NCBI GenBank assembly: GCA_965204375.1
Contig: OZ241986.1
Coordinates: forward strand, 6,240,001-6,304,000
DNA from: Candidatus Latescibacterota bacterium
Lineage (GTDB): Bacteria > Latescibacterota > UBA2968
DNA: 64,000 bases
Direction of reading: 5' to 3'
The notes under the pieces are model-generated. The model was not told the DNA's origin. It was given only the letters and a program-made list of their open reading frames with translations, and searched no databases. Below, one piece after another: positions 1-18,243 of the stretch. Numbering within the stretch: position 1 is the first letter of the stretch; the number at the start of each line of letters is the position of its first letter. The translations under genes and the position numbers were made by a program.

Positions 1-48
1 CTACCCCCTGTGTTCATCCGTGTTAATCGGGGGTTGCATTTTGGGGTA

Positions 49-129
49 GGGCGGGGTTCGTCTATTCGTTGATGAACTGGCCTGAGAGGCGGCCAGTTGT
101 ACACCGTTCCGTTGATTCGTTGATTCGCT
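49..129. repeat. Small intergenic repeat element (GTTGATTC/GTCTATTC octamers plus AACTG..CAGTT hairpin)
   Basis: TTCGTTGATGAACTG-loop-CAGTTGTAC.CCGTTCCGTTGATTCG recurs at 55386-55431; GGCGGGGTTCGTCTATTCG recurs inverted near 55333-55352. Confidence 0.75.
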
Positions 130-143
130 TTTCGGAGGATGGC

Positions 144-1148
144 ATGAAACGGGAAACGCATATTTTGCTTTGTCTGATCGGGTTTGCCGGTCTGGGTGTG
201 CTTTTGTATCAGCTCAGCACTCCAGAGGTGTGGCAGCATGTTTTGATGATGGGCTGGGGCTATGTACCGGTGATCGGCCTGTCGCTGGTGGTATTTGTTC
301 ATCATGCGTGGATATGGCGGGCGTGCTTTGATCGCGGGTCGGAAAGGCCGCGTTTGAGACAGTTGCTGTGGGTGCAGTTGGCTGGCGAGGCAGTGGGCAA
401 TGTGGCGCCAGCATCGCAGGTTGGTAAGGAGGTCGGCAAGGCGATTGTGCTGAGAGACAAGATGTGCGTTTCCCGCGGGGTGTCATCGCTGGTGGTCAAT
501 AAGACGGGTGAGATGATTGGTGGGGTGATTTTTGTGATCGGTGGCGTTGTGCTGGGTTTGCAGCGGTTTTCGTGGCCGGCTGAGGTGCGAGGCGCTCTGA
601 TCGCTGTTCTGGCGTTGTCTGTTCTGGGGGTTGTTTGGACTGTTTTCAGGCAACGCCGGAGTCCCTTTGCCCGGTTTTTGAATTTGATGCTGTGGTTGCG
701 GCTCAGGTTTTTGGAGCGGTTCCGCGATCGCGCAGTGGAGATTGACGAGAATTTGGCTCAGTTTTATCGGCTGAATAGGTGGCGTTTGGTGGGTTTGCTG
801 ATGCTCCATGTGTTGGGCTGGTTTCTGGGTACGCTGGAGATCTATGTGATTCTTCATGTGCTCGGCGAACCGATGCCGTTTGTTTGGGTATATCTGTTCC
901 ACGCGCTGATGGTCGTGATTAATGCGGCGTTCTTTTTTGTTCCGCTCGGGATGGGCGTTTTTGAAGGCGGGCATGTGTTTCTGTTTCATTTGATGGGTTT
1001 GGATCCAAAGATGGGGTTGGCTGTGGGTATTATTCGGCGGGTTCGGAGGCTTTTCTGGATGCAGGTGGGTCTAACTTTGCTGCTGATCGGATCGCGAGGC
1101 AAGCAGGCTGATGCGGTCCAGAAAAATGATCGCCTTCAGCAGGTGTAG
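144..1148 (+). CDS. Lysylphosphatidylglycerol synthase TM / flippase-like (UPF0104) membrane protein
   Basis: About 8 TM segments with GEAVGNVAPASQVGKE and FFVPLGMGVFEGG motifs; ATG at 144 follows GGAGG. Confidence 0.75.
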   Translation: MKRETHILLCLIGFAGLGVLLYQLSTPEVWQHVLMMGWGYVPVIGLSLVVFVHHAWIWRACFDRGSERPRLRQLLWVQLAGEAVGNVAPASQVGKEVGKAIVLRDKMCVSRGVSSLVVNKTGEMIGGVIFVIGGVVLGLQRFSWPAEVRGALIAVLALSVLGVVWTVFRQRRSPFARFLNLMLWLRLRFLERFRDRAVEIDENLAQFYRLNRWRLVGLLMLHVLGWFLGTLEIYVILHVLGEPMPFVWVYLFHALMVVINAAFFFVPLGMGVFEGGHVFLFHLMGLDPKMGLAVGIIRRVRRLFWMQVGLTLLLIGSRGKQADAVQKNDRLQQV

Positions 1149-1208
1149 ATGTAGTGCATCATGCATGACAGACGTTCGTCAACGAATAATTAAAAAAAGG
1201 AGAAAATA

Positions 1209-1733
1209 ATGACACGCTCGATTTCTTGCCTGATCTGTATCCTTTTGAGTGTAACCTTCAGTTTTCCGGTTCAGGCAAAAAAGACTGACCTCACCAAGAG
1301 TTATGGTATTGGACTTCAGGGGGCTACACCCACATTTGGTGGCATTAGTTTTCGCTATAACAGACTGGCACCGGTATATCTTCAAACCGTTGGACGTTTC
1401 ATTCTCAATGGTCAGGATAGCGACCATATGTTAGGCGCTGGCGTTTCGTATGCCATATTCGAGCATCAAAGCCGGTGGAATATATCCCGACTTCATTTCA
1501 CTCTCGAAGGTGGCTGGCAACAGAAAGAGGAGGGTCTCCGCGAGGAGACTGTCAAAACCACGACGCTGGCAACTGGACTTGCCTTTGGAGGCGAGCTTGT
1601 GTTTTCACTTGGGGGGATTCCTCTCGGTTTGAACGTGGAGATCGGTCAAGGGTTTGGTAGGGAAAAAATAAGCTCTCAATCTAAGGGTCTCGCTGGCGTT
1701 TATGCAGGAGGAGGCATCCATGCCTATTTTTAG
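1209..1733 (+). CDS. Small exported outer-membrane beta-barrel-like protein
   Basis: Signal peptide (PVQA/KK), amphipathic strands, C-terminus GGIHAYF; AAGGAG RBS. Confidence 0.6.
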   Translation: MTRSISCLICILLSVTFSFPVQAKKTDLTKSYGIGLQGATPTFGGISFRYNRLAPVYLQTVGRFILNGQDSDHMLGAGVSYAIFEHQSRWNISRLHFTLEGGWQQKEEGLREETVKTTTLATGLAFGGELVFSLGGIPLGLNVEIGQGFGREKISSQSKGLAGVYAGGGIHAYF

Positions 1734-2550
1734 GTCTCTTTCTATTGTTATGGTTGCGGCAATCCTGCTCAATGCGATGGCCCCTACGCTCGCACATGCG
1801 GCCAAATACTTGCAAGATTCAGAGGTCAATTCCAATACGCTGGTTCGGGATGCTTATGTGCAAGTCACTTATTACGATAGCAATGGAGAACAGAAATTGG
1901 CAAAGGGATGGATTGATGCGATTGACGAGACCACATTTGAGATTCGAAGCAGAGCAATTTTCGGCAAGACGACCATTGCCTATGACAAAGTCGTGTCAAT
2001 GATCATGAGCGCAGAAACGGATAATCGAACGCAACAAATGAGGGAAGTGGAACAGTTTATTCGAGAAGAACAAAAAAGAAAGATAGAGCAGGCAATATCA
2101 GAGCGGACAGAGAACAGACCCAGACGGATTCTCGGCAAGTTGGGCGTTGGCCTTCTTGGAGGTCTTCTTGGAGGGAGTGTGGGGGGCGCAATAGGGGCGA
2201 ATATCAATGAAAATATCTGCGAAGATTCAAGTGATATTTGTATAGATGATGAAGTCGCACTGGGCCTGGCGGGTGGCTATTTGATCGGCGTGGCCTTGAG
2301 TGTGAGTTGGGCAGATTCTAACGATCGGTTTATCGGTGCATTGGGAGGCACCCTGATAGGGGTCGCAACGGGGATTGCACTGACTAACACCACAGAGGAT
2401 CTCTGGCCGTCTATTCTTATCTGCCCGATTATCGGGGCTACGATTATGTCCGAGCTTACGCGGAAGCCTCCTGAATCCCACCGTTTCTCTGTGGGTTTGG
2501 CACCTAATTCCGATGGGAAATTATCAGCGATTGCAACGCTTCGATTTTAA
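1720..2550 (+). CDS. Array paralog 1: signal peptide, one beta module, Gly-zipper hydrophobic region, C-terminal strand
   Basis: N-terminus MAPTLAHAAKYLQDSEVNSNTL..AYVQVTYYDS shared with paralogs; ends SAIATLRF; GGAGGAGG precedes ATG 1720. Confidence 0.8.
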   Translation: MPIFRSLSIVMVAAILLNAMAPTLAHAAKYLQDSEVNSNTLVRDAYVQVTYYDSNGEQKLAKGWIDAIDETTFEIRSRAIFGKTTIAYDKVVSMIMSAETDNRTQQMREVEQFIREEQKRKIEQAISERTENRPRRILGKLGVGLLGGLLGGSVGGAIGANINENICEDSSDICIDDEVALGLAGGYLIGVALSVSWADSNDRFIGALGGTLIGVATGIALTNTTEDLWPSILICPIIGATIMSELTRKPPESHRFSVGLAPNSDGKLSAIATLRF

Positions 2551-2587
2551 GTACCTGCCAGTGCATTCGTCTCAAAAGGAGAAACAC

Positions 2588-3679
2588 ATGAAAAAATTAA
2601 CTGCTGTCTTTGTAATCGCAGTCATCCTGCTCACCGCGATGGCTCCTACCCTCGCGTATGCAGCCACATACCTGCAAGGCGCACAGGTCAATGCCAATAC
2701 GCTGACGCAAAATGCCTATGTTGCAGTCACATATTACGATAGCAAAGGCAAACAGAAATTGGAGAAGGGGTGGATTGATGCTATTGGTGAGACCACATTT
2801 CGGATTCGAAGCGGAGCACTTTTTGGGAAGAAGGCCATCGCTTACGACAAAGTAGTGTCGGTGATCATGAGCGAGGAAGTAACCTCACGAGAAAAGCAAA
2901 TCAATGAGGTGGACCGGTTTATACGAGAGATGGAAAAACAAGAGGCGAGAGTGTTAGAGATAGAGCAGGCCATCCAGAAATTCAATCAGACCATCACGGT
3001 CATGGACCGCGGGCAACTCGACTTGTCAAAAATCCCAAAAGGATGGTATATCCACATCGTCTATACATCAAAAGGTGTAAAAGGAACTGCAACCGTACGT
3101 AGTGTAGAGATAGATTCAAGTCATATCTCGATCAAAGAAGGATTGCTGAAGACCAGAAAAATAGCATACAACGATATTGATACGCTCCTTATTGCCAAAA
3201 GTTGGCGCGACATAGAACGCTATAAAAAGATCGGTGCAACATACGATGTCAAGGTGCGTGTGCAGGCTCCTCCAATCTCAAAAAAGCGGATGGATGGCAG
3301 GCTCATTAAAATGACACAAGACACACTCGTTATCCAGCGAGGCCGTAGATTTTATCAGGTGCCCCTTTCTTCAATCTCGAATTTGGAAGTACCCATCAAA
3401 GGTTCGAGAAATACAGGCAAAGGAATGTTAATAGGACTGGGGCTGGGACTTGCTATTTTTTTGCCTTTCTACATACCAGCCGAATCCGGCTCTTGGGATG
3501 AGTTCGGAGCGTTATTGATTGGAATGGGCATATCTATCCCTGTTTGTGCTCTCTCCACGCTGATTGGCGCGATGACCAAATCCGACAAATGGGTTGAGGT
3601 GCCGCCGCATCGCCTCAACCTGAGCCTTGCGCCCACAGCCACAAAAGGGCTTCGCGCTGCGCTCACGTTTAATTTTTGA
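2588..3679 (+). CDS. Array paralog 2: exported modular protein with three beta modules, hydrophobic hairpin and LTFNF tail
   Basis: AAGGAG RBS then ATG 2588; conserved N block and KSDKWVEVPP..GLRAALTFNF C block. Confidence 0.85.
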   Translation: MKKLTAVFVIAVILLTAMAPTLAYAATYLQGAQVNANTLTQNAYVAVTYYDSKGKQKLEKGWIDAIGETTFRIRSGALFGKKAIAYDKVVSVIMSEEVTSREKQINEVDRFIREMEKQEARVLEIEQAIQKFNQTITVMDRGQLDLSKIPKGWYIHIVYTSKGVKGTATVRSVEIDSSHISIKEGLLKTRKIAYNDIDTLLIAKSWRDIERYKKIGATYDVKVRVQAPPISKKRMDGRLIKMTQDTLVIQRGRRFYQVPLSSISNLEVPIKGSRNTGKGMLIGLGLGLAIFLPFYIPAESGSWDEFGALLIGMGISIPVCALSTLIGAMTKSDKWVEVPPHRLNLSLAPTATKGLRAALTFNF

Positions 3680-3710
3680 TATGCAATAGCACCTTTAAGA
3701 GGATAATCCC

Positions 3711-3857
3711 ATGCACCCAGAGCACAATATCCGTCAAGCCGTTGCGATCTTTGTCACCGCGACCTTTCTACTCAACACAATGGCTCCGACGCTTGCACAC
3801 GTAGCTATAGACCTGCAAGGCGCACAGGTCAATGCCAATACGCGCTATCTGCGATAA
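3711..3857 (+). pseudogene. Truncated array paralog (48-aa N-terminal stump)
   Basis: Translates MHPEHNIRQAVAIFVTATFLLNTMAPTLAHVAIDLQGAQVNANTRYLR*, nearly colinear with the N-terminus of 13081..14163. Confidence 0.85.
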
Positions 3858-3952
3858 AACAAAAAATCCTCTCAATATTATATTCTCTCTTATAGCAAAA
3901 TTGCGGCCTGATTCTGTTCAAATTATTGAATATAAATTACATAAAAAAATAT

Positions 3953-4182
3953 TTGAAAACCCGCGGGAATGATATATTTTATTTTTGTCAACAGTCAAGC
4001 AGGTCCCGTTATGTCGGGTATCTGCTGAATACAATAGCCGAGTATAGACATGGACTGATCCCCCATGTCTCGGTAAATAGGTAGGACATTCCCGCATTTC
4101 TATTCCTGCGTGACTGTTGACAATGCCCGACACCCCTTTTTTGGGGTGTCGCAACACGCAGTTGTCAACCAGTCACACTGCG
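3953..4182 (+). promoter_or_regulatory. Structured leader with mutually exclusive pairings (C4-antisense/attenuator-like), after a promoter-like TTGAAA..TATATT/TATTTT
   Basis: 3985-4003 is complementary to 4105-4123 (18/19); 4110-4123 is also complementary to 4162-4176; hairpins at 4046-4070 and 4128-4151. Confidence 0.5.
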
Positions 4183-4247
4183 CCTTGCGTAGATGAGGAA
4201 CGAAATGCGATTTTTTTTGTACGGCAGCAAATGAAAAGGAGAAATCC

Positions 4248-5777
4248 ATGCAGGTCGAATACAACGCGAGTAGAGCCATCGCCATCCTGGTCACTACAGC
4301 CCTCTTGTTCAATGCGATGATGCCAACACTCGCACACGCAGCCACATATCTACAAGGCGCAGAGGTCAATGCCAATACGCTCATTCGAGATGCTTATGTG
4401 CAAGTCACCTATTACGATAGCAATGCAGAACAGAAATTGGCGAAGGGATGGATTGATACTATTGGTAAAACTTCGTTCACAATCCGAGAAGGAGGATTCA
4501 GAGACAAGAAGACCATTGCCTACGACAAAGTGCTGTCAGTGATCATGAGCGACGAATCAACTGTGCCAGCGAAGCAGATGAATGAGGTGAATCGGTTTAT
4601 TCGAGAGATGAGAAAAAGAGAGATAGAGCAAAATAAAAAAGAGAAAGAAGCAAAAGAAGCGCAGACTGTCATCATGTCACAGGGGCAGATTGATCTTTCA
4701 AAGATTATGAAGGGATGGTATGCCCATGTGGTCTATACATCAGAAGGTGTGCAAGAAACTACAACCGGAAAAATTATCAGGCAAGATTCTGTGCATATTG
4801 TGATCAGAGTGCAAGAGGAGCGCGCATTGAGAATTTTGAAAACAATAGCATATAAGGACATCGATACCCTCGTTATCGCCCAACACGCGCAGAGTATTGA
4901 AGCATGGAAAAATGCAAAACAGATCCAAAGATACCTTGAAAATGGATACAATATCCAAGTGCTTGTCCAGGCCTCTTCAATCTGGGAGAATCGGGTGGTT
5001 GGCAGACTCGTCAAAATGACACCGGACACACTCGTTATCTCAGGAGGAGGCACATTTTTTCAAGTACCTGTGTCTTCGATCTCCAATTTTGAAGTGAACA
5101 TTGGACAGCATAGAAACACGGGAAAAGGCACAGATTATATCTTAATTAGAGTTGAGGATAAAGCATTGAAATCTTGGAAAACAATAGCATACCGTGACGT
5201 GGATACCCTCGTTATTACCCAACACACACGAGATATTGAAGGATGGGGAAATGTACGACAGACCCAAGGACACAGGGAACAATCTACGCAACAACTCTCT
5301 GAAGGAGAACCCAGAGTGCGTGTTTATGCGCCTTCAATTCGGAAGGGATGGATGGTCGGCAAGTTGGTTAAAAAGACGCAAGATACACTCGTTGTCCGTG
5401 GAGAACTTACACTTTATGGACGTAGATTTTATCAGGTGCCTCTTTCTTCAATCTCCTATCTCGAGGTCAGTGCTGGAAAGTATAGAAATACATTCAATGG
5501 CATGAAAATCGGACTGTACATTAGTCTCGGAGTTGCTGCAATATTGGCTGTGTCTGCTGTAACTTCGGAATCCGAAGCAGCCCTTATACTCTCAGATGTG
5601 GAGACTACGAGTCTTTTTCTATTTTTCGTGTCGCTACCTATTACTACCGTTGCGACTATAATTGGTACGCTGATCAAATCTGACAAATGGGTCGGGGTAT
5701 CTCCTGATCGCCTCAACCTGAGCGTTGCACCCACATCCACAAAAGGGCTTCGCGCCGCGCTCACGTTTAATTTTTAA
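4248..5777 (+). CDS. Array paralog 3 (509 aa, internally duplicated or chimeric)
   Basis: Same N and C blocks as other paralogs; the KTIAY..DTLVI..QVP.SSIS segment occurs twice. Confidence 0.85.
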   Translation: MQVEYNASRAIAILVTTALLFNAMMPTLAHAATYLQGAEVNANTLIRDAYVQVTYYDSNAEQKLAKGWIDTIGKTSFTIREGGFRDKKTIAYDKVLSVIMSDESTVPAKQMNEVNRFIREMRKREIEQNKKEKEAKEAQTVIMSQGQIDLSKIMKGWYAHVVYTSEGVQETTTGKIIRQDSVHIVIRVQEERALRILKTIAYKDIDTLVIAQHAQSIEAWKNAKQIQRYLENGYNIQVLVQASSIWENRVVGRLVKMTPDTLVISGGGTFFQVPVSSISNFEVNIGQHRNTGKGTDYILIRVEDKALKSWKTIAYRDVDTLVITQHTRDIEGWGNVRQTQGHREQSTQQLSEGEPRVRVYAPSIRKGWMVGKLVKKTQDTLVVRGELTLYGRRFYQVPLSSISYLEVSAGKYRNTFNGMKIGLYISLGVAAILAVSAVTSESEAALILSDVETTSLFLFFVSLPITTVATIIGTLIKSDKWVGVSPDRLNLSVAPTSTKGLRAALTFNF

Positions 5778-5821
5778 TGACCGCTCTTTTGACAAATACC
5801 AATTGTGCAAGGTGAACGATT

Positions 5822-6865
5822 ATGAAGCGATATACGCTAATTGGGCTATGCACATTGTGTATATGGCTCATGGCGGGTGAAGGGTTTGCCCAGCCGATCA
5901 GATCACTCGTTTTAGTTTTTCCCAACAATGGCCGCATAGCAGCCTTGGGGGAGGCTGGTGTGGGGTTGATCGGGAGCGGGCAGGCCATTTTTTACAATCC
6001 CGCAGGGCTGGCTTTTATGGAGGGTCGAGAAGCGTATTTTACGTATGTAAATTGGTTTAGTGGTATCAAGAACTATGTGGCTGGTGTTTCAGCAAATGTA
6101 CCGCGTATAGGGACATTTGGGTTTTCTGCTGTGAATTTCGATAACACGAATGATAATGAGAGCGAATATGCCATTTCTGGGGCTTATGCGTTCAATATTA
6201 CCCGCCGGATTGCAGCAGGAGCCACTGTCAAGCTGGCGCATCACGACTATTCCAGAGCAAGCATGCTATATCGCGAAAATGATATTTTTCATGAATTTCA
6301 AGATGGTCGTTTTCATGAATATCCAGACTCAACTCAGAAATATGTTCACAATTTTTTTCTTTTTGATGTGGGTGCGTATTCCGTGGGGTTCCAAAATTTG
6401 GTGCTGTCGCTGAGCGTGCATAATTTGAGCGCGAGGGGATTAGGCAAGCCAGAGGCATTGGAGCTATCGGAGATTATCCGCCTGGGATTGCTCATCGATT
6501 TGATGTCACTGATGGATATGAGGTCCTTGCCGCATGCGCTGGACCTGGTCATGGGTGTGAATACACGGACCAATTTCGATGGGCCTGTTGAACTGAACAT
6601 GGGCGTCGAATATACGTATTTGTACCGGGCTGCGGACCACTCTTTCGGCGTCTCGCTGCGGGCAGGACGAAGGTCCCAAAGATACTGGCGAGCGACAAAT
6701 CCCACCGTCTGGGGAGGTGGCTTGCAGTTTAAGACCAACGGAGGTTGGGCACTAAAGATGGATTACGCACGTAAGTCCTTCTATTATCGTAGCGAAGTTC
6801 CTGGAAGATTTATTTACACGGTTAATTCTAAAGTACATATTCTCAGCCTTGCTTTTAATTTTTAG
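5822..6865 (+). CDS. PorV/PorQ (FadL-like, UPF0164) outer-membrane beta-barrel
   Basis: Signal peptide; AALGEAGVGLIGSGQAIFYNPAGLA motif; ends LSLAFNF. Confidence 0.7.
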   Translation: MKRYTLIGLCTLCIWLMAGEGFAQPIRSLVLVFPNNGRIAALGEAGVGLIGSGQAIFYNPAGLAFMEGREAYFTYVNWFSGIKNYVAGVSANVPRIGTFGFSAVNFDNTNDNESEYAISGAYAFNITRRIAAGATVKLAHHDYSRASMLYRENDIFHEFQDGRFHEYPDSTQKYVHNFFLFDVGAYSVGFQNLVLSLSVHNLSARGLGKPEALELSEIIRLGLLIDLMSLMDMRSLPHALDLVMGVNTRTNFDGPVELNMGVEYTYLYRAADHSFGVSLRAGRRSQRYWRATNPTVWGGGLQFKTNGGWALKMDYARKSFYYRSEVPGRFIYTVNSKVHILSLAFNF

Positions 6866-6897
6866 AGTGATGTTCACTGATCCGAAAAGGGGAACTT

Positions 6898-7974
6898 ATG
6901 GTACGAATAGCAGCAATCGTTTGGATGTTAAGCTTCTGTATGCCAGAAACCGTACTGGCAGGAGCGGTCTTTGAGGCTGGTGAGATTGATAGCAGCACGG
7001 TTAAACCCGGTGCCTATGTCGAGATTATCTATGGGAGTGGGGAGCGAGATCCAGTGTCAGGAGCGTGGGAGAGACTGGATACTGCAAGGGGGTATATTCA
7101 AGCTATTGATGCAGAGCGGTTGGTCCTTGGTGAGCGGTTTTGGAAGAAGGAAATAGAGTTAGAATGCATCCAAAAGTTGACGATTCCAGACACTGATGGC
7201 GAAATGGGTGACATTAGTGGGATCGGCTCGCCTTTTGGATCACGGACATTGCAGGCGGAGATCGTTTTAGAAGCCGGTGAGATTGATAGCAGTGCGGTTG
7301 AAGTCGGTGATTTTGTCGAGGTTATCTATGGGAAGGGAGAGCGAGATCCAGTGTCAGGAGCGTGGGAGAGACTGGATACTGCGAAAGGATATGTCAAAGC
7401 TGTTGATGCGGAGTATATGATCATTGGCGAGCGATTTTTGGAGGATCAGATCGCATTGGAGCGCATTCAAAAGCTGATTATTTCAGACTTCGCTCGCGAG
7501 TTGGATAGGTCGGGGGATGAGATTGGCGGCACTGTTGCGACAGCGTATCGAAACGTTTGGCCCTTTTTGGGTATTGCGCCTGGTACGGTCATTTTGGTTG
7601 GGGAAAATTTTAGTATTAGTTTTGTTCACGTTTTTACCGGGTTTGAGCTTGGAACTGGGCAATTTAGCGCGAGTATAGAGGCAGGGTATGGCTCACCAAT
7701 TGAAGCATTGCAGTGGGGCGTTGGTGTTTTTTCGGTGAATGGAAATTTTCATCTTGTTAAAAAACATCGTCTGAATACTGGCGTTCCTTTTTTGTCAGTT
7801 GGCTATACGGCTTTGGTGAGGGAGGGAAGCACGAGTTTATTCAATGTCGGGGCGGGTATAACCTGGTGGTCTCATAAAGGCAGAAGTCTGCGTCTGGAAG
7901 TGCGAGATCATATTACCTGGTCAGGTGGAGAAGGCGCACATGCTCTGGAATTCAGGATCAGTGCTGTTCGGTAA
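6898..7974 (+). CDS. Exported protein: two tandem beta modules plus C-terminal OMP beta-barrel
   Basis: 99-aa tandem repeat with an identical 44-bp core (7042-7085 = 7339-7382); C-terminal amphipathic strands PFLSVGY..FNVGAGI..LRLEVRD. Confidence 0.7.
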   Translation: MVRIAAIVWMLSFCMPETVLAGAVFEAGEIDSSTVKPGAYVEIIYGSGERDPVSGAWERLDTARGYIQAIDAERLVLGERFWKKEIELECIQKLTIPDTDGEMGDISGIGSPFGSRTLQAEIVLEAGEIDSSAVEVGDFVEVIYGKGERDPVSGAWERLDTAKGYVKAVDAEYMIIGERFLEDQIALERIQKLIISDFARELDRSGDEIGGTVATAYRNVWPFLGIAPGTVILVGENFSISFVHVFTGFELGTGQFSASIEAGYGSPIEALQWGVGVFSVNGNFHLVKKHRLNTGVPFLSVGYTALVREGSTSLFNVGAGITWWSHKGRSLRLEVRDHITWSGGEGAHALEFRISAVR

Positions 7975-8002
7975 TCATCTGATATATGGAAAGGTAATGA
8001 CC

Positions 8003-8887
8003 ATGAGAAGATATGCGCTAATTGGGTTATGCATACTCATTGGGTTGATGGCGGATGAAGGGTTTGCCCAGGGGCTGAATGCCCGAAAAACAGCTTTGGC
8101 TGGTGCGGGCATAGGCTTGATTGGGAGCGGGCAGGCCATTCAGTACAATCCAGCAGGATTGGCCTTTATGGATGGTTGGGAGGCATATTTCATGTTTATG
8201 GATAGAAATACAAGTTATAGCGGGTATGATGGTGAAAGGGCATACAAAGCTGGTATTGCTGGAAACACAGGCATAGGGACTTTTGGACTTTCCGCCACTT
8301 CGGGTCGTATTAGGGCTGATGATGTGAACGAATATTCCATTTCAGGTGGCTATGGGTACAAGATTAACAACCGGCTTGCTGTGGGGGCCACCCTCCGTCT
8401 CTTCCATTCTGAATGGCTCGAGACCAACGACTTAGACCTTGATCTGGGTGCATATTTCGTGACCGGGCTGCGGAATACAGTTGTTGCAGCAGGTGTGGAG
8501 AATTTGAAGACTGGGATAGGTAATTCAAATCGTGTTAGGCTCCGTGCTGGGTTGTTCCTTGACATGATGTCGCTACTGGATTTGGAGTCTTTGTTACACT
8601 ATTTGGACCTTTCTGTAGATGTGAACGATTATATCAATGTTGACGGAGATCCTTGGGCGAATCTGGGCATTGAATATCAGCACAGATACTTGCTATCAGG
8701 CTATGCGTTAGAAATCGCATTGTGTGGAGGAATGCAATCGATATATGGCCGTGGCTCGGCTAAGACAACCTGGGGCGGTGGACTGAAGTTTGAGACAGAA
8801 GGTGGCCGTGGCATCAAGGTAGATTACGCGTCTTTTGGTTCCGAAATTTACCCTGGCCACATTGTCAGCATGGCATTCATATTTTAG
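8003..8887 (+). CDS. Second PorV/PorQ-like beta-barrel (paralog of 5822..6865)
   Basis: MRRYALIGLC..EGFAQ signal nearly identical to 5822; ALAGAGIGLIGSGQAIQYNPAGLA; ends MAFIF. Confidence 0.7.
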   Translation: MRRYALIGLCILIGLMADEGFAQGLNARKTALAGAGIGLIGSGQAIQYNPAGLAFMDGWEAYFMFMDRNTSYSGYDGERAYKAGIAGNTGIGTFGLSATSGRIRADDVNEYSISGGYGYKINNRLAVGATLRLFHSEWLETNDLDLDLGAYFVTGLRNTVVAAGVENLKTGIGNSNRVRLRAGLFLDMMSLLDLESLLHYLDLSVDVNDYINVDGDPWANLGIEYQHRYLLSGYALEIALCGGMQSIYGRGSAKTTWGGGLKFETEGGRGIKVDYASFGSEIYPGHIVSMAFIF

Positions 8888-8979
8888 GTCAAAATTCCAA
8901 GCTCAGCCGCCCTTGGAAAGGTCCTTTGACAAGCTCGGGCAATGGTTCGGTTATATACCTGCACACCAAGGAGAGATCG

Positions 8980-10173
8980 ATGCAAATAGTCACTATGGTT
9001 ATGATAATGGCAATTCTGTTCAGCGCGGTGGCTCCCACGCTCGCATACGCAGCCATATACTTGCAAGGCACAGAGGTCAATGCCAATACGTTGGTCCAAG
9101 ATGCTTATGTGCGAGTCACTTATTACGATAGCAATGCAGAACAGAAATTGGCGAAGGGATGGATTGATACTATTGGTGAAACTTCGTTCACAATCCGAGA
9201 AGGAGGATTCAGGGGTAAGAAGACCATTGCCTACGACCAAGTTGTGTCAGTGATCATGAGTGACGAATCAACAGCACCTGTAAAGCAGATGAATGAGGTG
9301 AATCGGTTTATTCGAGAGATGAAGAATAGAGAGATAGAGCAGACGAAAAAAGAGAAAGAAGCAAAGGAAGAGCAGATAAAAAGAGAGGCTGAACAGGCTG
9401 CCATTCAACGGCTCAAACAGCGTCTAAAAGACAAGGTCGTTATGATTGGGCAATTCGACTTATCGAAGAGGGAATGGTATGCCCATGTGGTCTATACTTC
9501 TAAAGAAGGATATAAAAGAACAGCAATCGGACAGATTATCAAGCAAGACACGGATCATATCGTGATCAGAGTGCAGGAGAGAGGAGGATTGAAAATTAAG
9601 AAAACAATAGCATACACTGACATCGATACGCTCGTTGTCGCCAAACAGTGGTCAGATATCGAGAGGTATCGAGAAAGCGGTGTGCAATACAATGCCAAAG
9701 TGCGTTTCAAAGCCCCTTTAGTTTCAGAAAGGCGGATGACTGGCAGGCTTATAGCAGTTAAGCAAGATACTCTCGTTATTGAGGGTCCCTTGCGACCTTT
9801 TATACCTGGACGCCGACAACGACTGGTCAAAATGACGCATTACGTCCCTCTTTCATCAATCTCGAATCTCGAAGTTAGCATCGGACAGCAGAGAGAAGTC
9901 ACTAAAGGTCTGTTAATGGGGGTCGGACTTGGAATTGTTGTCTATGTAACTCAATCTCCTGAACCCTGCCCTGATCCTCCCGACTGTACTTTCGCAGGCT
10001 TAGAAGAATTAGGTGCATGGATCCTTGCAGGAGGAACTTGTATGATTTTTACTCTGATTGGTGCTCAAATAAAATCTGAAAAATGGGTTGAGGTTCCACC
10101 GCAACATCTCAACTTGAGTTTTGCGCCTACATCTTCAAAAGGGCTTCGCGCTGCACTCACGTTTAACTTCTAA
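8980..10173 (+). CDS. Array paralog 4
   Basis: AAGGAG RBS, ATG 8980; conserved N block; KSEKWVEVPP..GLRAALTFNF. Confidence 0.85.
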   Translation: MQIVTMVMIMAILFSAVAPTLAYAAIYLQGTEVNANTLVQDAYVRVTYYDSNAEQKLAKGWIDTIGETSFTIREGGFRGKKTIAYDQVVSVIMSDESTAPVKQMNEVNRFIREMKNREIEQTKKEKEAKEEQIKREAEQAAIQRLKQRLKDKVVMIGQFDLSKREWYAHVVYTSKEGYKRTAIGQIIKQDTDHIVIRVQERGGLKIKKTIAYTDIDTLVVAKQWSDIERYRESGVQYNAKVRFKAPLVSERRMTGRLIAVKQDTLVIEGPLRPFIPGRRQRLVKMTHYVPLSSISNLEVSIGQQREVTKGLLMGVGLGIVVYVTQSPEPCPDPPDCTFAGLEELGAWILAGGTCMIFTLIGAQIKSEKWVEVPPQHLNLSFAPTSSKGLRAALTFNF

Positions 10174-10302
10174 TGTCAGGGTCTGTTCTACAGAATATGC
10201 GGTTGGGGATGCTCATTGATGTGATTGCGCTCGGTCACACATGTAAGACCGCGCTTGTATGTGGCGTTTTCGAAATGGTCGGAGAAAGGATGAGGTGATG
10301 TC

Positions 10303-13065
10303 ATGAGAATAGAATGCAGGATACTCAGGATAAGCGCGTGTTTGTTTGCCTTGCTTTGTCTATCGTCTGTTGGAGATGCTTCGCCGCCATCTGCTGGGGA
10401 CAATGTGCATTTTTGCCGCGTTCTCGATTACGAAGACATGCGGGAGCGCGATAGCATTTATGCTGCTACGAAGCACGCGCCTAATCTGAACGTTGGCGAA
10501 CCCCGCACGGTGCGAATGATTTACTTTTTGCCGAATGACCGTCCCTTTCGCCAGGAAGTGGTGGATTCGATGAAAGTGACGATTCGCCAGATTCAGACGT
10601 TTTATGCGGAACAGATGCAGGCGCATGGACATGGGAACAAGACCTTTCGCTTTGAAACCGATGCTCAGGACGAACCAATAGTTCATCGCGTGGATGGACA
10701 AAATCCTACTAATCATTATTCCAATCATACGCCTGTTTTGAGGTACGAGGTTGCACAGAAATTTGATCTCTCAGCGAACATTTACTTCCTTGTCATTGAC
10801 AATGGTACAAATACAGTTGATTTATTAGGCTTTCAAGTGGGAGGGATAGCAATCACACACGGGAATAGTAGAGTTGCGTTGATTCCTGGCGATTTTTTTT
10901 GGACAACAGCAGCACATGAACTTGGACATACCTTCGGATTGGGTCATGACTTCAACGATGATGCATACATCATGTCGTACGGTCCAGGACAAGATCGGTT
11001 ATCTGAGTGTAGTGCTGGGTTTTTAGCAGTGCATCCCTACTTTAATCCGGATGTTGAAACGATAGATACACAGCCGACAATAATCAAACTCATTTCATCG
11101 CAGGACTATCCAGCAGACTCAAAGAGTGTCTTGATCCAACTCAAAGTCAGCGATTCAGATGGGATTCATCAAGTGTTCCTATTTCTTGAAGACGAAGTGA
11201 AGGCGTGTCGTAGATTGCATGGAGAAAAAGATGCTGTCGTTGAATTCGATTATGACGGCGTTTTTCCCTCTGATAACAGCACGAGTCTTTCCGATCCTAA
11301 TATACATCCGATTGATGTGAAGGTTGTTGATACTTTTGGGAATGAGAACTCTCTTCATTTTCTGTTGCGGAACATTTCGGCACCGGGTAAGATCATCGCC
11401 AAGTTTGATGCACATACGAATAATCATGTTACTTCAGTATCATTTTCGCCCGATAGCAAAATACTTATATCAGGGTCATTCGATGGTACGATTAAACTGT
11501 GGGACGTTGCGATACGACGACCTATCACCACTCTACGTACCGGTTCTGTCTTCTCTTTAGCATTGTCGCCTGATGGCACGATGATCGCTATTGGGTCTAA
11601 TCATAGGGTTGACCTATGGGATATTGCGACAGAAAAAAATATTACCCCTCTTGAGTGGTCTATACTTCACTACGTCCATTCTGTAGCGTTTTCACCTGAT
11701 GGCACGATGGTCGCTGCGGGGGCGGGACATGACTCGGGAGGAGGGGGCACAGTTAGACTGTGGGATGTTGCAACAGGAGAAAATATCGCCAATCTTGAGG
11801 GGGATATGAGTTATGTCTGGTCTGTGACATTTTCGCCAGATGGTACCACACTCGCTATCGGGTCAGAGCAGGGAATTATACTGTGGGACATTTCGACGAA
11901 AAATTTTGACACTCTTACGGGATATACAAGAAGGGTCAATTCTGTAAAGTATTCACCCGATGGCACTATCCTCGCGTTAGGGACAGGGGGTGACTACGAG
12001 ACCGCAGCATCTTTTTTGGGGGGCAGAATCTATGTGTGGGAGGTTCCGTCTTGGAGCACTATTGCCACTCTTGAGGGACATTTCGCAGGTGCCTTGTCTG
12101 TAGCATTTTCGCCAGACGGAATGATTCTTGCCTCGGGAGCATTAGATCACACGGTCAGATTGTGGGACGTTGCTACGGGAATAAATATCGCTACCTTTGA
12201 AGCGCATACGGAGGTGGTCCGTTCTGTGGCATTTTCTCCCGATGGGACGATCCTCGCTTCTGGTGCAGGGGATGGCAAGGTCATGCTTTGGGATATGTCA
12301 GATTATGTCACGCCTGTGGTCTATATGCCCGATGCCAACCTGCATGCGGTGATCCGAGATGCGCTGGGCAAATCGCGTTTTGCGCCTATTACCACGACGG
12401 ATATGGCGAGTTTGACTACTCTGGATGCGAGCAACCGCAATATCCGCGATTTGACCGGGCTTGAGTTTGCAACCAATCTGACCGAATTGAATCTTGTGGA
12501 TAATTGGCTGAGTTCGTTGTCTATTAACACGCATATTCCAGCCTTGCAAGAGAGAGGTGTTGAGGTCTTGTTTGACAAGCCTACGACGCTGGTGAATATC
12601 TCAGATAGTGAACAGGAAGGCGTGCCCGGTGCCGTGTTGGGGATGCCTCTGGTCGTTGAAGTGCGAGATCAGGGGGGGGATGTGCTTGCAGGTTCGCCGG
12701 TCACTTTTGTTGTCACGGAAGGAGATGGGGCGCTCAGTGTAGAAACCACTGTGACCGATTCGAGTGGTCGGGCATCGAGCGTGCTGACGCTTGGTAACAG
12801 TTTGGAGCCAATCACTGTTTCGGTTATGGTTGCGGGAATTGAGCAACCGGTGATCTTTTTGATAGAAGCTATGGCTACACCCGATTTCGATAGGGATGGT
12901 GCTGTTGGTTTTGCCGATTTTTTGCTATTTGTAGCACAGTTCGGGTTCAGTGAGGATGATGAGGGTTATGACGTGTGGTTTGACTTGGATGGTGATGGCA
13001 CGATTGGATTTGGGGATTTTCTGATTTTTGCCAATGCCTTTGGCAAAGCCGTATCGTCGAATTAA
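10303..13065 (+). CDS. Secreted multidomain protein: metzincin-like Zn site, WD40 propeller, LRR, Ig-like, dockerin/EF-hand
   Basis: HELGHTFGLGH..IMSY; about 7 SVAFSPDG..LWD repeats; IRDLTGLEFATNLTELNL; TDSSGRA Ig motif; DFDRDGAVGFADF / DLDGDGTIGFGDF. Confidence 0.85.
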   Translation: MRIECRILRISACLFALLCLSSVGDASPPSAGDNVHFCRVLDYEDMRERDSIYAATKHAPNLNVGEPRTVRMIYFLPNDRPFRQEVVDSMKVTIRQIQTFYAEQMQAHGHGNKTFRFETDAQDEPIVHRVDGQNPTNHYSNHTPVLRYEVAQKFDLSANIYFLVIDNGTNTVDLLGFQVGGIAITHGNSRVALIPGDFFWTTAAHELGHTFGLGHDFNDDAYIMSYGPGQDRLSECSAGFLAVHPYFNPDVETIDTQPTIIKLISSQDYPADSKSVLIQLKVSDSDGIHQVFLFLEDEVKACRRLHGEKDAVVEFDYDGVFPSDNSTSLSDPNIHPIDVKVVDTFGNENSLHFLLRNISAPGKIIAKFDAHTNNHVTSVSFSPDSKILISGSFDGTIKLWDVAIRRPITTLRTGSVFSLALSPDGTMIAIGSNHRVDLWDIATEKNITPLEWSILHYVHSVAFSPDGTMVAAGAGHDSGGGGTVRLWDVATGENIANLEGDMSYVWSVTFSPDGTTLAIGSEQGIILWDISTKNFDTLTGYTRRVNSVKYSPDGTILALGTGGDYETAASFLGGRIYVWEVPSWSTIATLEGHFAGALSVAFSPDGMILASGALDHTVRLWDVATGINIATFEAHTEVVRSVAFSPDGTILASGAGDGKVMLWDMSDYVTPVVYMPDANLHAVIRDALGKSRFAPITTTDMASLTTLDASNRNIRDLTGLEFATNLTELNLVDNWLSSLSINTHIPALQERGVEVLFDKPTTLVNISDSEQEGVPGAVLGMPLVVEVRDQGGDVLAGSPVTFVVTEGDGALSVETTVTDSSGRASSVLTLGNSLEPITVSVMVAGIEQPVIFLIEAMATPDFDRDGAVGFADFLLFVAQFGFSEDDEGYDVWFDLDGDGTIGFGDFLIFANAFGKAVSSN

Positions 13066-13080
13066 CAGGAGGAGAACGCC

Positions 13081-14163
13081 ATGCACACCGGACACAACAT
13101 CCGTCAAGCCATTGCCATATTTGTAACCACAACGCTCCTGCTAAACGCGATGACTCCAACGCTTGCACACGCAGCCACATATCTGCAAGGTGCAGAGGTC
13201 AATGCCAATACGTTGGTCCAAGATGCCTACGTTGCAGTCACATATTACGATAGCAAAGGCAAACAGAAATTGGAGAAGGGATGGATTGACGCGGTTGGTG
13301 AAACTTCGTTCACAATTCGCAGTGGACATTGGACCAAGAAGACGATTGCTTACAACAAAGTTCTGTCAGTGATCATGAGCGAAGAATCAGCCATACTAAA
13401 GCAGATGAATGACGTGAATCAGTTGATTCGGGATATGGAATTGCCGGAGGTTGTCATCATGTCACGCGAACAGATTGATGCTTCAAAGATTACGAAAGGA
13501 TGGTATGCCCACATTGCCTATACATCAGATAAGAAGAAAAAAAATGCAACTGGAAAGATTACCGATAGAGACTCAGACCGTATTGTAATTCAAAAGAGGG
13601 AAGAATTCTGGAAAAATTGGAAAATAGCATATAATGAGATGGATACACTCGCTGTTGCGAAACATCAACGGGATATTGAAGGATGGATGTTTATGCGATT
13701 GCTCCAGGAGGGAAATGCCAAAGTGCGTGTCCGTGTCCCTTCGATTAAAAAGAAATGGATGGTTGGCAAGGTCGTAAAAATGACGCAAGACACACTCGTT
13801 ATCCTACGAGGTCGTAGCTTTTATCAGGTGTCCCGTTCTTCAATCTCCAACCTTGAAGTCAACATTGGACAGTATAGAAACACAGAAAAAGGAGCGGCAA
13901 TTGGACTTGGAATTGGAGTTGGCATTCTTGCCCTATCTGCTTGGGATGTACATAAAGCCGACGACGAAAGTAGAGGGTGGGCTGAACTTGAACTTATTTT
14001 GGTCGCTGTACCTGCTGCTGTTCTCACCACTTTAACTGGTACGATAATTGGCGCAATGGACAAATCCGACAAATGGGTCAAGGTGTCGCCTCAGAGTCTC
14101 AACCTGAGCGTTGCACCCACATCGGGTAACGGGCTTCGCGCCGCGCTCACGTTTAATTTTTGA
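13081..14163 (+). CDS. Array paralog 5
   Basis: AGGAGGAG RBS; conserved N block; KSDKWVKVSP..GLRAALTFNF. Confidence 0.85.
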   Translation: MHTGHNIRQAIAIFVTTTLLLNAMTPTLAHAATYLQGAEVNANTLVQDAYVAVTYYDSKGKQKLEKGWIDAVGETSFTIRSGHWTKKTIAYNKVLSVIMSEESAILKQMNDVNQLIRDMELPEVVIMSREQIDASKITKGWYAHIAYTSDKKKKNATGKITDRDSDRIVIQKREEFWKNWKIAYNEMDTLAVAKHQRDIEGWMFMRLLQEGNAKVRVRVPSIKKKWMVGKVVKMTQDTLVILRGRSFYQVSRSSISNLEVNIGQYRNTEKGAAIGLGIGVGILALSAWDVHKADDESRGWAELELILVAVPAAVLTTLTGTIIGAMDKSDKWVKVSPQSLNLSVAPTSGNGLRAALTFNF

Positions 14164-14944
14164 CGTCAGCGTTTTTTTTCGATCCCAAAGCCAATACTCG
14201 AAATCCATATCGCTGAAAGACCGCAGCCGCTGTGTCTGATTGAAAGAAGTGCATGGCGGCTTCTGCTGTTGGTGTGTGTCGTTCTTTTACGATGGCGATT
14301 GGATAGACAATGGGCGTGTGCAATAGGGAATCGGGCAGTGTGGCGATTACTTCGATGCCATTGCTGATTGTCGCGTCTGTGGTATAGACAATGCCGGCTG
14401 CACATTCTCCGCGGGCGACCAGCGCGAGTGCGCCGCGCACGTCCATTGTCGGGGCGATGCGGTTTTTGAGCAATGCCCACCAGCCCAATTTTTTCAGGAC
14501 TTCTACGGCGTAGGTGCCCGCAGGTACATGAGACGGGTCGCCCAGGGCCAATTGTCCATTGAATGCGCTGGAGAAGTCAAAGTCAGCGTGGGGTTCGATT
14601 TCGAATTTTTCATTTTTGGGGGAGATAATTACGAGGGCGTTGCCCAGCAGGTTGATTCGGGTATTGGGTTCGAGCAATTTTTCCGTTGCCAAAAAATCCA
14701 TCCATTTTACATTAGCGGAGAAATATATATCCGCAGGCGCACCCAGGGCTATCTGTTTGGCGAGGATCGAAGAACCGGCAAAAGACATTCGCAAGGATAT
14801 GCCCTGTTTTTCTGCGGTTTTGGAGAGGTCTTGCAGAGCACTCGTCAAGCTGGCTGCAGCATATACGGTTACGGGTTCGGCAAGGGCTATTCCGCGCGTT
14901 GAGAGGCAGGTTGTGATGAAGATGTAGATGAATAGTTTTTTCAT
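14153..14944 (-). CDS. modA: Molybdate ABC transporter periplasmic binding protein
   Basis: Signal peptide MKKLFIY; VYAAASL, FAGSSILAKQI, GDPSHVPAGTYA, GIVYTTDA motifs. Confidence 0.9.
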   Translation of the reverse strand: MKKLFIYIFITTCLSTRGIALAEPVTVYAAASLTSALQDLSKTAEKQGISLRMSFAGSSILAKQIALGAPADIYFSANVKWMDFLATEKLLEPNTRINLLGNALVIISPKNEKFEIEPHADFDFSSAFNGQLALGDPSHVPAGTYAVEVLKKLGWWALLKNRIAPTMDVRGALALVARGECAAGIVYTTDATISNGIEVIATLPDSLLHTPIVYPIAIVKERHTPTAEAAMHFFQSDTAAAVFQRYGFRVLALGSKKNADVKN

Positions 14945-14962
14945 GGGATGGAGGAGAATAGT

Positions 14963-15616
14963 ATGAGCGATTTTTGGGTTCAAGATGGCGAGACGATGTT
15001 GTTGATTGGCGATAGTATTACGGATTGTGGCCGGCGGGCGGCTGAGGCACCGCTGGGCAATGGGTATGTGCGGGCGTTTACAGAGATTGTGACGGCGCAG
15101 TTTCCCGAGCGAAATATTACTTATATCAATAAGGGGATTGGCGGCAATCGCGTGACGCATTTGCACGAGCGCTGGCGAGAAGATGTGATTGATCACGCGC
15201 CGGATAAGTTGTCGATTAAGATCGGGATTAATGATTTGCACAGCCTTTTGCGACAGGCGGAGGATGCGGTTCCGCCCGCGCGATTTGAAGCGTTGTACGA
15301 TGCGATTTTGGATACGACACAACGGGAGATTGGATGTCCTGTTGTGCTGATTACGCCGTTTTATATTTCGACGGATACATCCGGACAGACGTTTCAGAGC
15401 GAGGTTATGGCGTTGATTCCAGAGTATATCGGCATTGTAGAGAAGATGAGTAAAAAATATGGGACAAAGCTGTTGCGTTTGCACGATCTTTTCCAGGCGC
15501 ATTTGAAATATAGAGGTTCAGAAACTTTTTGTCCAGAGCCTGTGCATCCCAATCGGACAGGGCACTTTATTATTGCAGATGCGTTGTTTAAGATGCTGTG
15601 TGAAAGACAAGTGTGA
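14963..15616 (+). CDS. SGNH/GDSL hydrolase
   Basis: IGDSIT, KGIGG, IGIND, EPVHP blocks. Confidence 0.9.
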   Translation: MSDFWVQDGETMLLIGDSITDCGRRAAEAPLGNGYVRAFTEIVTAQFPERNITYINKGIGGNRVTHLHERWREDVIDHAPDKLSIKIGINDLHSLLRQAEDAVPPARFEALYDAILDTTQREIGCPVVLITPFYISTDTSGQTFQSEVMALIPEYIGIVEKMSKKYGTKLLRLHDLFQAHLKYRGSETFCPEPVHPNRTGHFIIADALFKMLCERQV

Positions 15617-15686
15617 AGTGAGAAGTAAGAAGTGAGAAATGAAAGGCATCCCCTCTCTCCTCTTACGTCTTACCTTTTACCTTTTC
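15608..15686. repeat. Inverted heptamer (AAGTGAG / CTTAC..) microrepeat hairpin
   Basis: GTGAAGTGAGAAGTAAGAAGTGAGAAATGA followed by TCTTACGTCTTACCTTTTACCTTTTCA; related to 35318-35410. Confidence 0.6.
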
Positions 15687-15712
15687 AGCTTTCTTCAATT
15701 GGAGGCATATCA

Positions 15713-16798: not shown

Positions 16799-16799
16799 A

Positions 16800-18080: not shown

Positions 18081-18243
18081 AAGCAACCACTGTCAGAATC
18101 AGGATATTCAGGATAAAAGGATGAGCAGGATGAAAAGGCGCGAGGCACAAGAGGCGAGGCAACCTGCCTTCAGCCCCAGATTTTCGCCTTTTATCTGCGT
18201 AAAACGCTCAAATTACTCGCGTTTTTTCTGCGTCATCTGCGGA

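Follow-up and report, generated by a model that had tools for sequence, protein, structure and literature searches.

The stretch of DNA under study (the window) is 64,000 nucleotides (nt) long and represents positions 6240001–6304000 of a single 6.34-Mb contig (G000:C1) from a Candidatus Latescibacterota genome. Ten full-length genes and one stump, all on the + strand, form an array at positions 1209–14163 of the window; the open reading frame (ORF) list agrees in this with a preliminary description that was made from the sequence alone. Five of the genes are paralogs, termed A to E, which represent an uncharacterised, lineage-restricted family of envelope proteins. Their products combine a signal peptide, small beta modules and a membrane anchor. 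The paralogs are encoded together with a small protein that resembles an outer-membrane protein (OMP), two PorV-like barrels and a secreted protein with a dockerin-like tail, and one of them is preceded by a conserved non-coding leader.

Signal peptides in the array were called by eye from their n-h-c regions and A-x-A sites. As the preliminary description had pointed out, and as the ORF translations bear out, eight of the ten full-length proteins terminate in Phe. This compares with 239 of 4136 ORFs of at least 250 amino acids (aa) in the same genome. The binomial probability of the excess is about 5e-9. This figure exaggerates the significance, as the paralogs do not count as independent cases; the proteins concerned come from three unrelated families.

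The paralog family and its anchor

Paralogs A to E display 39%–45% identity when aligned to the first, and the alignment shows the shared start that had been proposed for them. This start is nearly invariant and consists of the signal peptide followed by YLQ.(AE)VN.NTL..AYV.VTYYDS. Paralog A (positions 1720–2550) has the conserved first module with a different anchor, and its terminal hairpin ends in TLRF. Paralog B (2588–3679) has the signal peptide, modules, a glycine-zipper hairpin and a C-terminal block that ends in TFNF. The largest of the five is paralog C (4248–5777; 509 aa), with about four modules, the glycine-zipper hairpin and the C-terminal block. Paralog D (8980–10173) also has the shared start and the block. 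Paralog E (13081–14163), which was modelled by AlphaFold2, is found 16 nt behind the dockerin-tagged gene at 10303. The stump, at 3711–3857, has 48 codons that cover the signal peptide and run into the first module, and then a stop codon; it was recognised by a match at 3729–3842 and by reading of the sequence.

The C-terminal block spans 33–34 aa and is common to B, C, D and E, where it is encoded at 3578–3679, 5676–5777, 10072–10173 and 14062–14163, in accord with the preliminary description. Its conservation at the DNA level is due to ordinary purifying selection. Recent gene conversion was considered as an explanation and rejected, because the synonymous divergence is ordinary: among codons for identical amino acids, synonymous differences amount to 30% in the block and 27% in the N-terminal module. 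The signal peptide region (LLNAM.PTLA.AA; 1720–1810, 2588–2680, 4248–4340, 8980–9070 and 13081–13170) is nearly invariant over 69 family members that are otherwise 50%–60% identical, and such constancy is unusual for a signal peptide.

Scans of the paralogs with Pfam and NCBIfam show nothing beyond weak SH3-like matches; one module of paralog D matches the RimP C-terminal SH3 family (PF17384) at 32.5 bits, above the cut-off of 26.3. A search of PDB sequences gave no match with the family profile and three chance matches with the anchor profile. The earlier remark that the paralogs could not be assigned to a characterised family holds in these searches. A search of 5.8 billion proteins found 344 relatives, every one of them unnamed or "hypothetical", and the 32 related loci taken from species genomes are all titled Candidatus Latescibacterota or Latescibacteria. 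These organisms are uncultured, and the relatives with named records are metagenome-assembled genomes. In a survey of 168 Latescibacterota genomes the family is present in 48, where its genes are multi-copy and clustered. Almost all of these genomes belong to one order, i.e. 23 of 30 in taxonomic family f1 and 20 of 22 in f2 contain it, as compared with 2 of 76 in f4, the largest other family.

The AlphaFold2 model of paralog E has a mean predicted local distance difference test (pLDDT) score of 72.9. It displays three small beta barrels, at aa positions 32–100, 125–193 and 214–266, and a hairpin formed by helices 268–292 and 295–326 (pLDDT 80–85). The model is in agreement with the architecture put forward previously, i.e. 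modules, a helical hairpin and two terminal strands. In Foldseek searches with it, all 19 matches at E ≤ 0.001 (the best at 1.4e-4) are to tandem Tudor, KOW or spindlin folds; the whole model gave only SH3-fold repeats, at template modelling (TM) scores of 0.1–0.3, and nothing for the anchor. The number of modules varies from one to four per paralog, and charged helical linkers of varying length are found between them.

The gene at 6898–7974 also belongs to the family. Its product has two modules in tandem and, in the place of the hairpin anchor, a C-terminal domain that is all-beta. Comparison with the paralog family by hhalign gives a probability of 99.6% (E = 1.8e-23) over the signal peptide and both modules, which have pLDDT scores of 65–85 in its AlphaFold2 model. 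The two modules were created by an internal tandem duplication (6967–7191 and 7264–7488, 77.8% nt identity).

An alignment of 46 anchors shows a GxxxGxxxG consensus in helix 1. Two of its glycines are invariant (positions 7 and 11 of the first alignment row) and the first glycine of the zipper, four residues past a Lys, is nearly so. Helix 2 has one invariant glycine. The tail that follows, KSDKWV.V.P..LNLS.AP....GLRAALTFNF, is nearly invariant, and the terminal LTFNF is present in 57 of 69 sequences and is similar to the AFNF and AFIF ends of the neighbouring barrels. The loop between the helices is acidic (74 K/R vs 217 D/E) and the flanks are basic. This is the reverse of what the positive-inside rule predicts for an inner-membrane hairpin and would point to the outer membrane. 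Paralog A represents a third anchor type, with four Gly-rich hydrophobic segments before the terminal hairpin.

When 1.84 billion representatives were searched with a profile of the anchor alone, 187 proteins matched at E ≤ 1e-3. Those that match less strongly are public-metagenome proteins of approximately 185 aa, in which a signal peptide and a single module precede the same hairpin and a tail with a terminal Phe. Ten of 20 such minimal relatives scanned match PF13441, PF13488 or PF05433, all just below the cut-offs (the best at 27.9 vs 28.9 bits). The nearest clusters of the minimal form in a protein atlas are labelled Acidobacteriota and Gemmatimonadota, and these labels are leads only.

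The sole family member outside the arrays in this genome (G000 5462865–5463776) is 303 aa in length and has an anchor of the paralog A type. It is located behind genes for an extracytoplasmic function (ECF) sigma factor, an anti-sigma factor and two Spy/CpxP-like periplasmic proteins (G000:C1:5460369–5463776). These neighbours suggest envelope-stress control of the ancestral form.

Neighbouring genes and extent of the array

A total of 32 related loci with 107 family genes were annotated with profiles built from the window proteins. The gene directly upstream of a family gene is another family gene in 35 cases, a dockerin-ended gene in 27, a PorV-like gene in 12 and a small OMP gene in 10, and is unannotated in 23. 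Conversely, a family gene comes directly after 27 of the 40 dockerin-ended genes, and a PorV-like gene after all six barrel-type members; these counts are not independent, several of the arrays being orthologous. The recurrence of PorV-like neighbours in relatives had been anticipated by the preliminary description. The linkage to dockerin-ended genes, which is the strongest, had not been noticed, nor had the conserved leader. A putative functional link of the family to dockerin-tagged proteins and to PorV-like barrels is a well-founded inference.

The dockerin-ended neighbours are immunoglobulin (Ig)-repeat proteins (He_PIG, PKD, fn3) or WD40 proteins. In the window the gene concerned is at 10303–13065 and encodes a secreted protein of 920 aa with a metzincin-like HExxH region, a WD40 propeller, LRR and Big_1 domains and a C-terminal, dockerin-like pair of EF-hands. 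The tail shows sub-cut-off EF-hand matches only. It is 36%–84% identical to the tails of relatives and retains both Ca-binding DxDxDG loops. Pfam Dockerin_1 (PF00404, cut-off 22.9 bits) is passed by 14 of 21 dockerin-ended neighbours scanned in relatives, and the C-terminal domain of 10303 is homologous to the tails that pass. A literature search on Latescibacteria with dockerin found nothing relevant.

Units that comprise approximately 750 nt of the 3′-end of a dockerin gene together with a family gene have been tandemly duplicated, with 77%–96% nt identity. The short dockerin ORFs of relatives are 3′ fragments, without a signal peptide, of the full-length gene that heads the array. Examples are L019 82–14656, L030 12–12848 and L020 49–15173, where a full-length Ig-repeat dockerin gene is followed by repeats of a signal-less 3′ fragment and a family gene. 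Elsewhere in the window's own genome, on the − strand (G000:C1:4198849–4211952), giant ORFs of 1258 and 2363 aa combine cohesin, a dockerin-like domain and a C-terminal tail of the type IX secretion system (T9SS). Their domains suggest scaffoldin-like proteins of the canonical kind, for which the T9SS would be the route of export.

The two PorV-like genes are at 5822–6865 (347 aa, ending in AFNF) and 8003–8887 (294 aa, ending in AFIF). The first matches the PorV family model NF033709 at 54.1 bits, with residues 32–346 of 347 aligned to model positions 8–325 of 326, and the second at 33.8 bits over its first half only (residues 26–158). Both are below the cut-off of 90, thus the earlier designation "PorV-like" stands with respect to the full-length alignment of 5822 and is a weak call with respect to the scores. 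Twenty other genes of the genome pass this cut-off, and 5822 and 8003 are divergent PorV/PorQ-family-like outliers among more than 20 PorV-family genes. The genome also has, elsewhere, a SprA_N match of 96.6 bits and 11 Por_Secre_tail matches. The NCBIfam scan detected no T9SS C-terminal domain on any array protein. A role of the barrels as shuttles of T9SS cargo is therefore not shown, because they are divergent and the array proteins lack that domain.

The gene at 1209–1733 encodes an OMP-like protein of 174 aa with a signal peptide and the end HAYF; it has no Pfam or NCBIfam match. Its orthologs in relatives are 86%–94% identical and are located directly 5′ of a family gene.

The array does not start at 1209, where the preliminary description placed its beginning. 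It continues upstream of the window (locus L013), where two more paralogs, F (9545–10681) and G (11715–13187), a third PorV-like gene (10776–11639) and a second metzincin-WD40-dockerin gene (13244–15682) are found at a distance of 4–11 kb. Behind the latter is a paralog with an internal deletion (15698–15845), which retains ~77 nt of its start and ~23 codons of its end. A minus-strand regulator-like gene and an IS4-like transposase (15985–18848) part the two halves of the array. Positions 9197–15774 of L013 are collinear with pieces of window 3891–13157 at 75%–85% nt identity, the result of an old segmental duplication.

Promoter and terminator scans of positions 900–14600 gave no signal, with 24 promoter-like sites (22.1 expected) and 13 terminator-like sites (12.3 expected). 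Contigs from two RNA libraries (X1, X2) cover parts of the array at 90%–99% identity, e.g. a 1439-nt contig across 6709–8147 with 26 differences, but this is not proof of transcription. Joints between paralogs in such contigs, at 90% likeness, may stem from other copies or strains. Outside the array, window positions 57–128 belong to a dispersed repeat of 60–85 nt with about 49 further matches in the genome (82%–97% identity), which overlaps the starts of unrelated ORFs.

A structured leader RNA

The 357 nt before paralog C (3891–4247) constitute a conserved non-coding leader with a core RNA motif at 3980–4160. The leader is 92% identical to the stretch before paralog F and 89%–94% identical to stretches directly before family genes in eight further loci, and is far better conserved than the genes behind it. 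Twelve near-full-length copies are present in ten genomes of the genus; ten of these copies are located 21–25 nt before a family gene.

The RNA of positions 3990–4250 shows a fold z of −6.43, and it contains a U8 run near 4210–4219. A cmscan of window positions 1–15000 with 4227 Rfam families produced no match at E ≤ 0.1. Covariation was analyzed in an alignment of 22 sequences that includes weaker copies, with an RNAalifold structure of 34 pairs. Pairing is seen in 94.2% of cells, vs 83.6 ± 0.8 in shuffles, and 17 pairs have changes on both sides, vs 9.3 ± 1.2 (none of 500 shuffles reaches either value), figures to be read with the caveat that the structure was derived from the same alignment. 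Slid controls of the structure show 34%–48% pairing.

A covariance model (R1) matches 3980–4160 at 174.7 bits and detects eight RNA copies in this genome, three of which are new to the model. The further copies are at G000 positions 6229283, 4304212, 660389(−), 662479(−), 2990650, 1318028(−) and 1318512(−), with the two near 1318 kb in tandem. Full-length matches are found in 62 of 151 genomes of the phylum, at 1–14 per genome, including lineages that do not have the protein family. The same-strand ORFs 80–300 nt 3′ of the copies are mostly signal-peptide or lipoprotein genes. No promoter was located for the RNA. The leader is a covarying structured RNA of approximately 180 nt, previously undescribed. 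Independently of the array, there is good support for it as a candidate cis-regulatory RNA of a new class that occurs several times per genome, mostly before genes for secreted proteins or lipoproteins.

The divergent copies of this genome each have, as seen by eye, a downstream mimic of their own P1 5′ strand, which suggests alternative pairing. In another genome (G072:C1 near 305, 631, 2368 and 2611 kb; L066–L069) four copies are situated within a 2.77-kb repeat that is at least 99.9% identical and also bears a gene for a 210-aa secreted protein and an IS1-like transposase. Because the leader and its gene share this repeat with a transposase, they can be mobilised.

Interpretation and comparison with known systems

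The paralogs are probably located in the outer membrane. Indications of this are the terminal Phe motif, the acidic loop with its basic flanks, the barrel neighbours and the homolog 6898 with its beta anchor. The anchor itself is best understood, by analogy, as a new form of glycine-zipper outer-membrane anchor. It may work like SlyB and YfgH, and membership in their families is not proposed because there is no SlyB sequence match and no lipobox.

We tentatively favor a composite reading, at somewhat less than an even chance, in which the paralogs are outer-membrane glycine-zipper anchors akin to SlyB and YfgH whose modules tether co-encoded proteins. Each protein consists of a Sec signal peptide, one to four SH3/Tudor-like barrel modules of which the first is nearly invariant, charged helical spacers and a membrane anchor, the last formed by the glycine-zipper helical hairpin and a short beta hairpin with the OMP-type end LTFNF. 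The modules would extend into the periplasm from an anchor that resides in the outer membrane and, like SlyB and YfgH, packs around barrels and lipids. The co-encoded PorV-like barrels and small OMP would act as partners of this anchor; such an association with the neighbouring barrels is conceivable, though the odds are rather against it. The modules would hold co-encoded secreted proteins by way of the type I dockerin tail, i.e. the metzincin-WD40 protein in the window and the Ig-repeat, adhesin-like proteins in relatives. This binding of dockerin by the modules is the more doubtful step. The arrays would grow and shuffle by tandem duplication of units made up of a dockerin-coding 3′-end and an anchor gene, and at least some of them would be transcribed behind the conserved structured leader. 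A still more extended version is quite unlikely, namely an envelope display or tethering system with the anchors as non-cohesin dockerin receptors, exchange of cassettes, assembly with PorV-like barrels, and a riboswitch-like leader that switches the array and other envelope genes throughout the phylum.

Several observations weigh against tethering by outer-membrane anchors, in addition to the dependence among the linkage counts. The family members reach no curated Gly-zipper cut-off, and the window paralogs show no such match even at E ≤ 1; there is also no sequence match to SlyB or to any solved structure. The signal peptides are of the signal peptidase (SPase) I type (...PTLAHA|A) and have no lipobox Cys. 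The terminal beta hairpin of paralog E has a pLDDT below 50, as do the C-terminal strands of 6898, and Pfam searches with 35 relatives of 6898 gave one weak OMP_b-brl match only, thus a barrel anchor is not established for that protein. With respect to the dockerin partners, many of the short signal-less ORFs in relatives may be debris. Dockerin-like domains occur in 152 of 168 genomes, including all 76 of f4 where the family is nearly absent, and this genome contains 71 dockerin-like ORFs vs 8 family genes. A comparison by eye of dockerin subtype (end SSN, SSA or RFF; loop variants) with the type of the downstream family gene revealed no pattern. No paralog has a cohesin (PF00963) match in Pfam. 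The genome has four true cohesin matches elsewhere, two of them on ORFs that also bear T9SS tails, and because canonical cohesins exist there the family is not a general dockerin receptor.

The helices themselves are strongly hydrophobic, with median segments of 21 and 27 residues and a maximum Kyte-Doolittle 15-residue mean of 2.35. Segments of this kind normally stop Sec transfer, and they could serve as stop-transfer segments in the inner membrane. The paralogs might accordingly be periplasmic scaffolds anchored by an ordinary transmembrane hairpin, with the modules and the C-terminal tail in the periplasm, and the confident modelling of the helices is in keeping with this. We consider such an arrangement improbable, since the charges are distributed in reverse of the positive-inside rule (as counted above for the loop), the C-terminal Phe motif is strictly conserved and similar to that of the adjacent barrels, the neighbours are outer-membrane barrels and the homolog 6898 bears an all-beta anchor domain in place of the helices. 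Somewhat less improbable, but still unlikely, is a role as general outer-membrane stabilisers, where the anchors oligomerise round barrels or lipid patches, the modules serve as spacers or as sensors, and the dockerin genes do not encode partners but were carried along as the arrays duplicated. The glycine-zipper hairpin, the minimal form of ~185 aa found outside Latescibacterota (nearest atlas clusters in Acidobacteriota and Gemmatimonadota), the envelope-stress setting of the member outside the arrays and the abundance of dockerins in genomes without the family are all consistent with it, and so is the SlyB/YfgH literature (10.64898/2025.12.22.696046). It does not account for a first module that is nearly invariant and lineage-specific, for the varying number of modules or for the 27 of 40 dockerin-ended genes that directly precede a family gene, and the paralogs have neither a lipobox nor a family-level match.

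The preliminary description had suggested that the two terminal strands may oligomerise into a barrel or pore, or complete a neighbouring barrel, and present a variable surface repertoire. The strands are amphipathic and end in Phe, the low confidence of the monomer model at this point is what is expected of strands that need partners, and the barrel of the 8003 type, with 294 aa, is a short one. An oligomeric barrel or pore is unsupported, however, and we regard this proposal as very unlikely. The variable parts are N-terminal to the anchor and would be periplasmic if both ends of the anchor face the periplasm, as in other outer-membrane anchors, which makes a surface repertoire unlikely. Synonymous divergence is ordinary in the first module and the C-terminal block, where nothing points to diversifying exchange, and no match was found to autotransporter, secretin, CsgG or other oligomeric-barrel secretion families in Pfam and NCBIfam or to a PDB sequence. 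Equally remote is the idea that the proteins are tethers between outer membrane and cell wall, or periplasmic spacers, in which the SH3-like modules would attach to peptidoglycan, with a reach that depends on how many modules and spacer helices a protein has. The SH3 fold, the charged helical linkers of varying length and the one to four modules per protein would suit this function. The nearest folds are nonetheless Tudor and KOW rather than SH3b, the Pfam and NCBIfam scans detected neither SH3b, LysM or OmpA_C nor any other family that binds the wall, and the linkage to dockerin genes and PorV-like barrels is left unexplained.

If the paralogs are tethering anchors as proposed, they are comparable in part to cellulosome-type cohesin-dockerin systems (PF00963 / PF00404), where secreted modular proteins with a C-terminal dockerin are likewise encoded beside a membrane-anchored modular protein. 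The anchored paralogs differ in that they carry SH3/Tudor-like modules and no cohesin, and the true cohesins of this genome are elsewhere, on the giant T9SS-tail ORFs. In orphan cdiA-CT/cdiI or rhs-CT/immunity modules, a full-length head gene is followed by repeats of a 5′-truncated C-terminal piece and a small partner gene. The dockerin arrays of relatives recall this arrangement in layout only. The C-terminal piece in these arrays is conserved and is not a variable toxin; the arrays contain no toxin domain, and nothing in them points to immunity.

Similarity to PorV/PorQ (NF033709), the barrels of the T9SS cargo shuttle and attachment complex, is seen in the alignment of 5822 to the full model, in the aromatic beta-signal at the ends of 5822 and 8003 and in the presence of SprA and T9SS C-terminal-domain proteins in the genome. 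On the other hand the scores of the two barrels are far below 90 and the array proteins have no T9SS C-terminal domain. Papers on Latescibacterota (PMC12993501) emphasise eukaryote-like repeat proteins of sponge-associated members. If the proposed tethering is true, the arrays offer a testable handle on how the envelope retains such proteins, here the WD40 and Ig-repeat proteins with dockerin tags.

The closest comparison is with SlyB and YfgH (PF05433, with relatives PF13488 and PF13441). As described in a bioRxiv report, these are lipoproteins anchored in the outer membrane by glycine-zipper two-transmembrane hairpins, which form rings around OMPs and lipid (10.64898/2025.12.22.696046). The paralogs share with them a GxxxG-type zipper hairpin and a small beta-rich periplasmic part, their minimal relatives score just below the cut-offs of these Pfam families, and one family member is in an envelope-stress operon. 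The clients of SlyB and YfgH are outer-membrane barrels according to the same report, and the neighbours of the paralogs are such barrels as well. Unlike SlyB and YfgH, the paralogs have no lipobox and no significant sequence match to these proteins, and the order of the parts is reversed, with the beta modules before the hairpin. In addition, the paralogs end in a beta hairpin with a terminal Phe of the OMP type, they can contain as many as four modules, and their genes are organized in tandem arrays. Should the comparison prove true, the SlyB/YfgH principle would reach beyond the lipoproteins of Proteobacteria.

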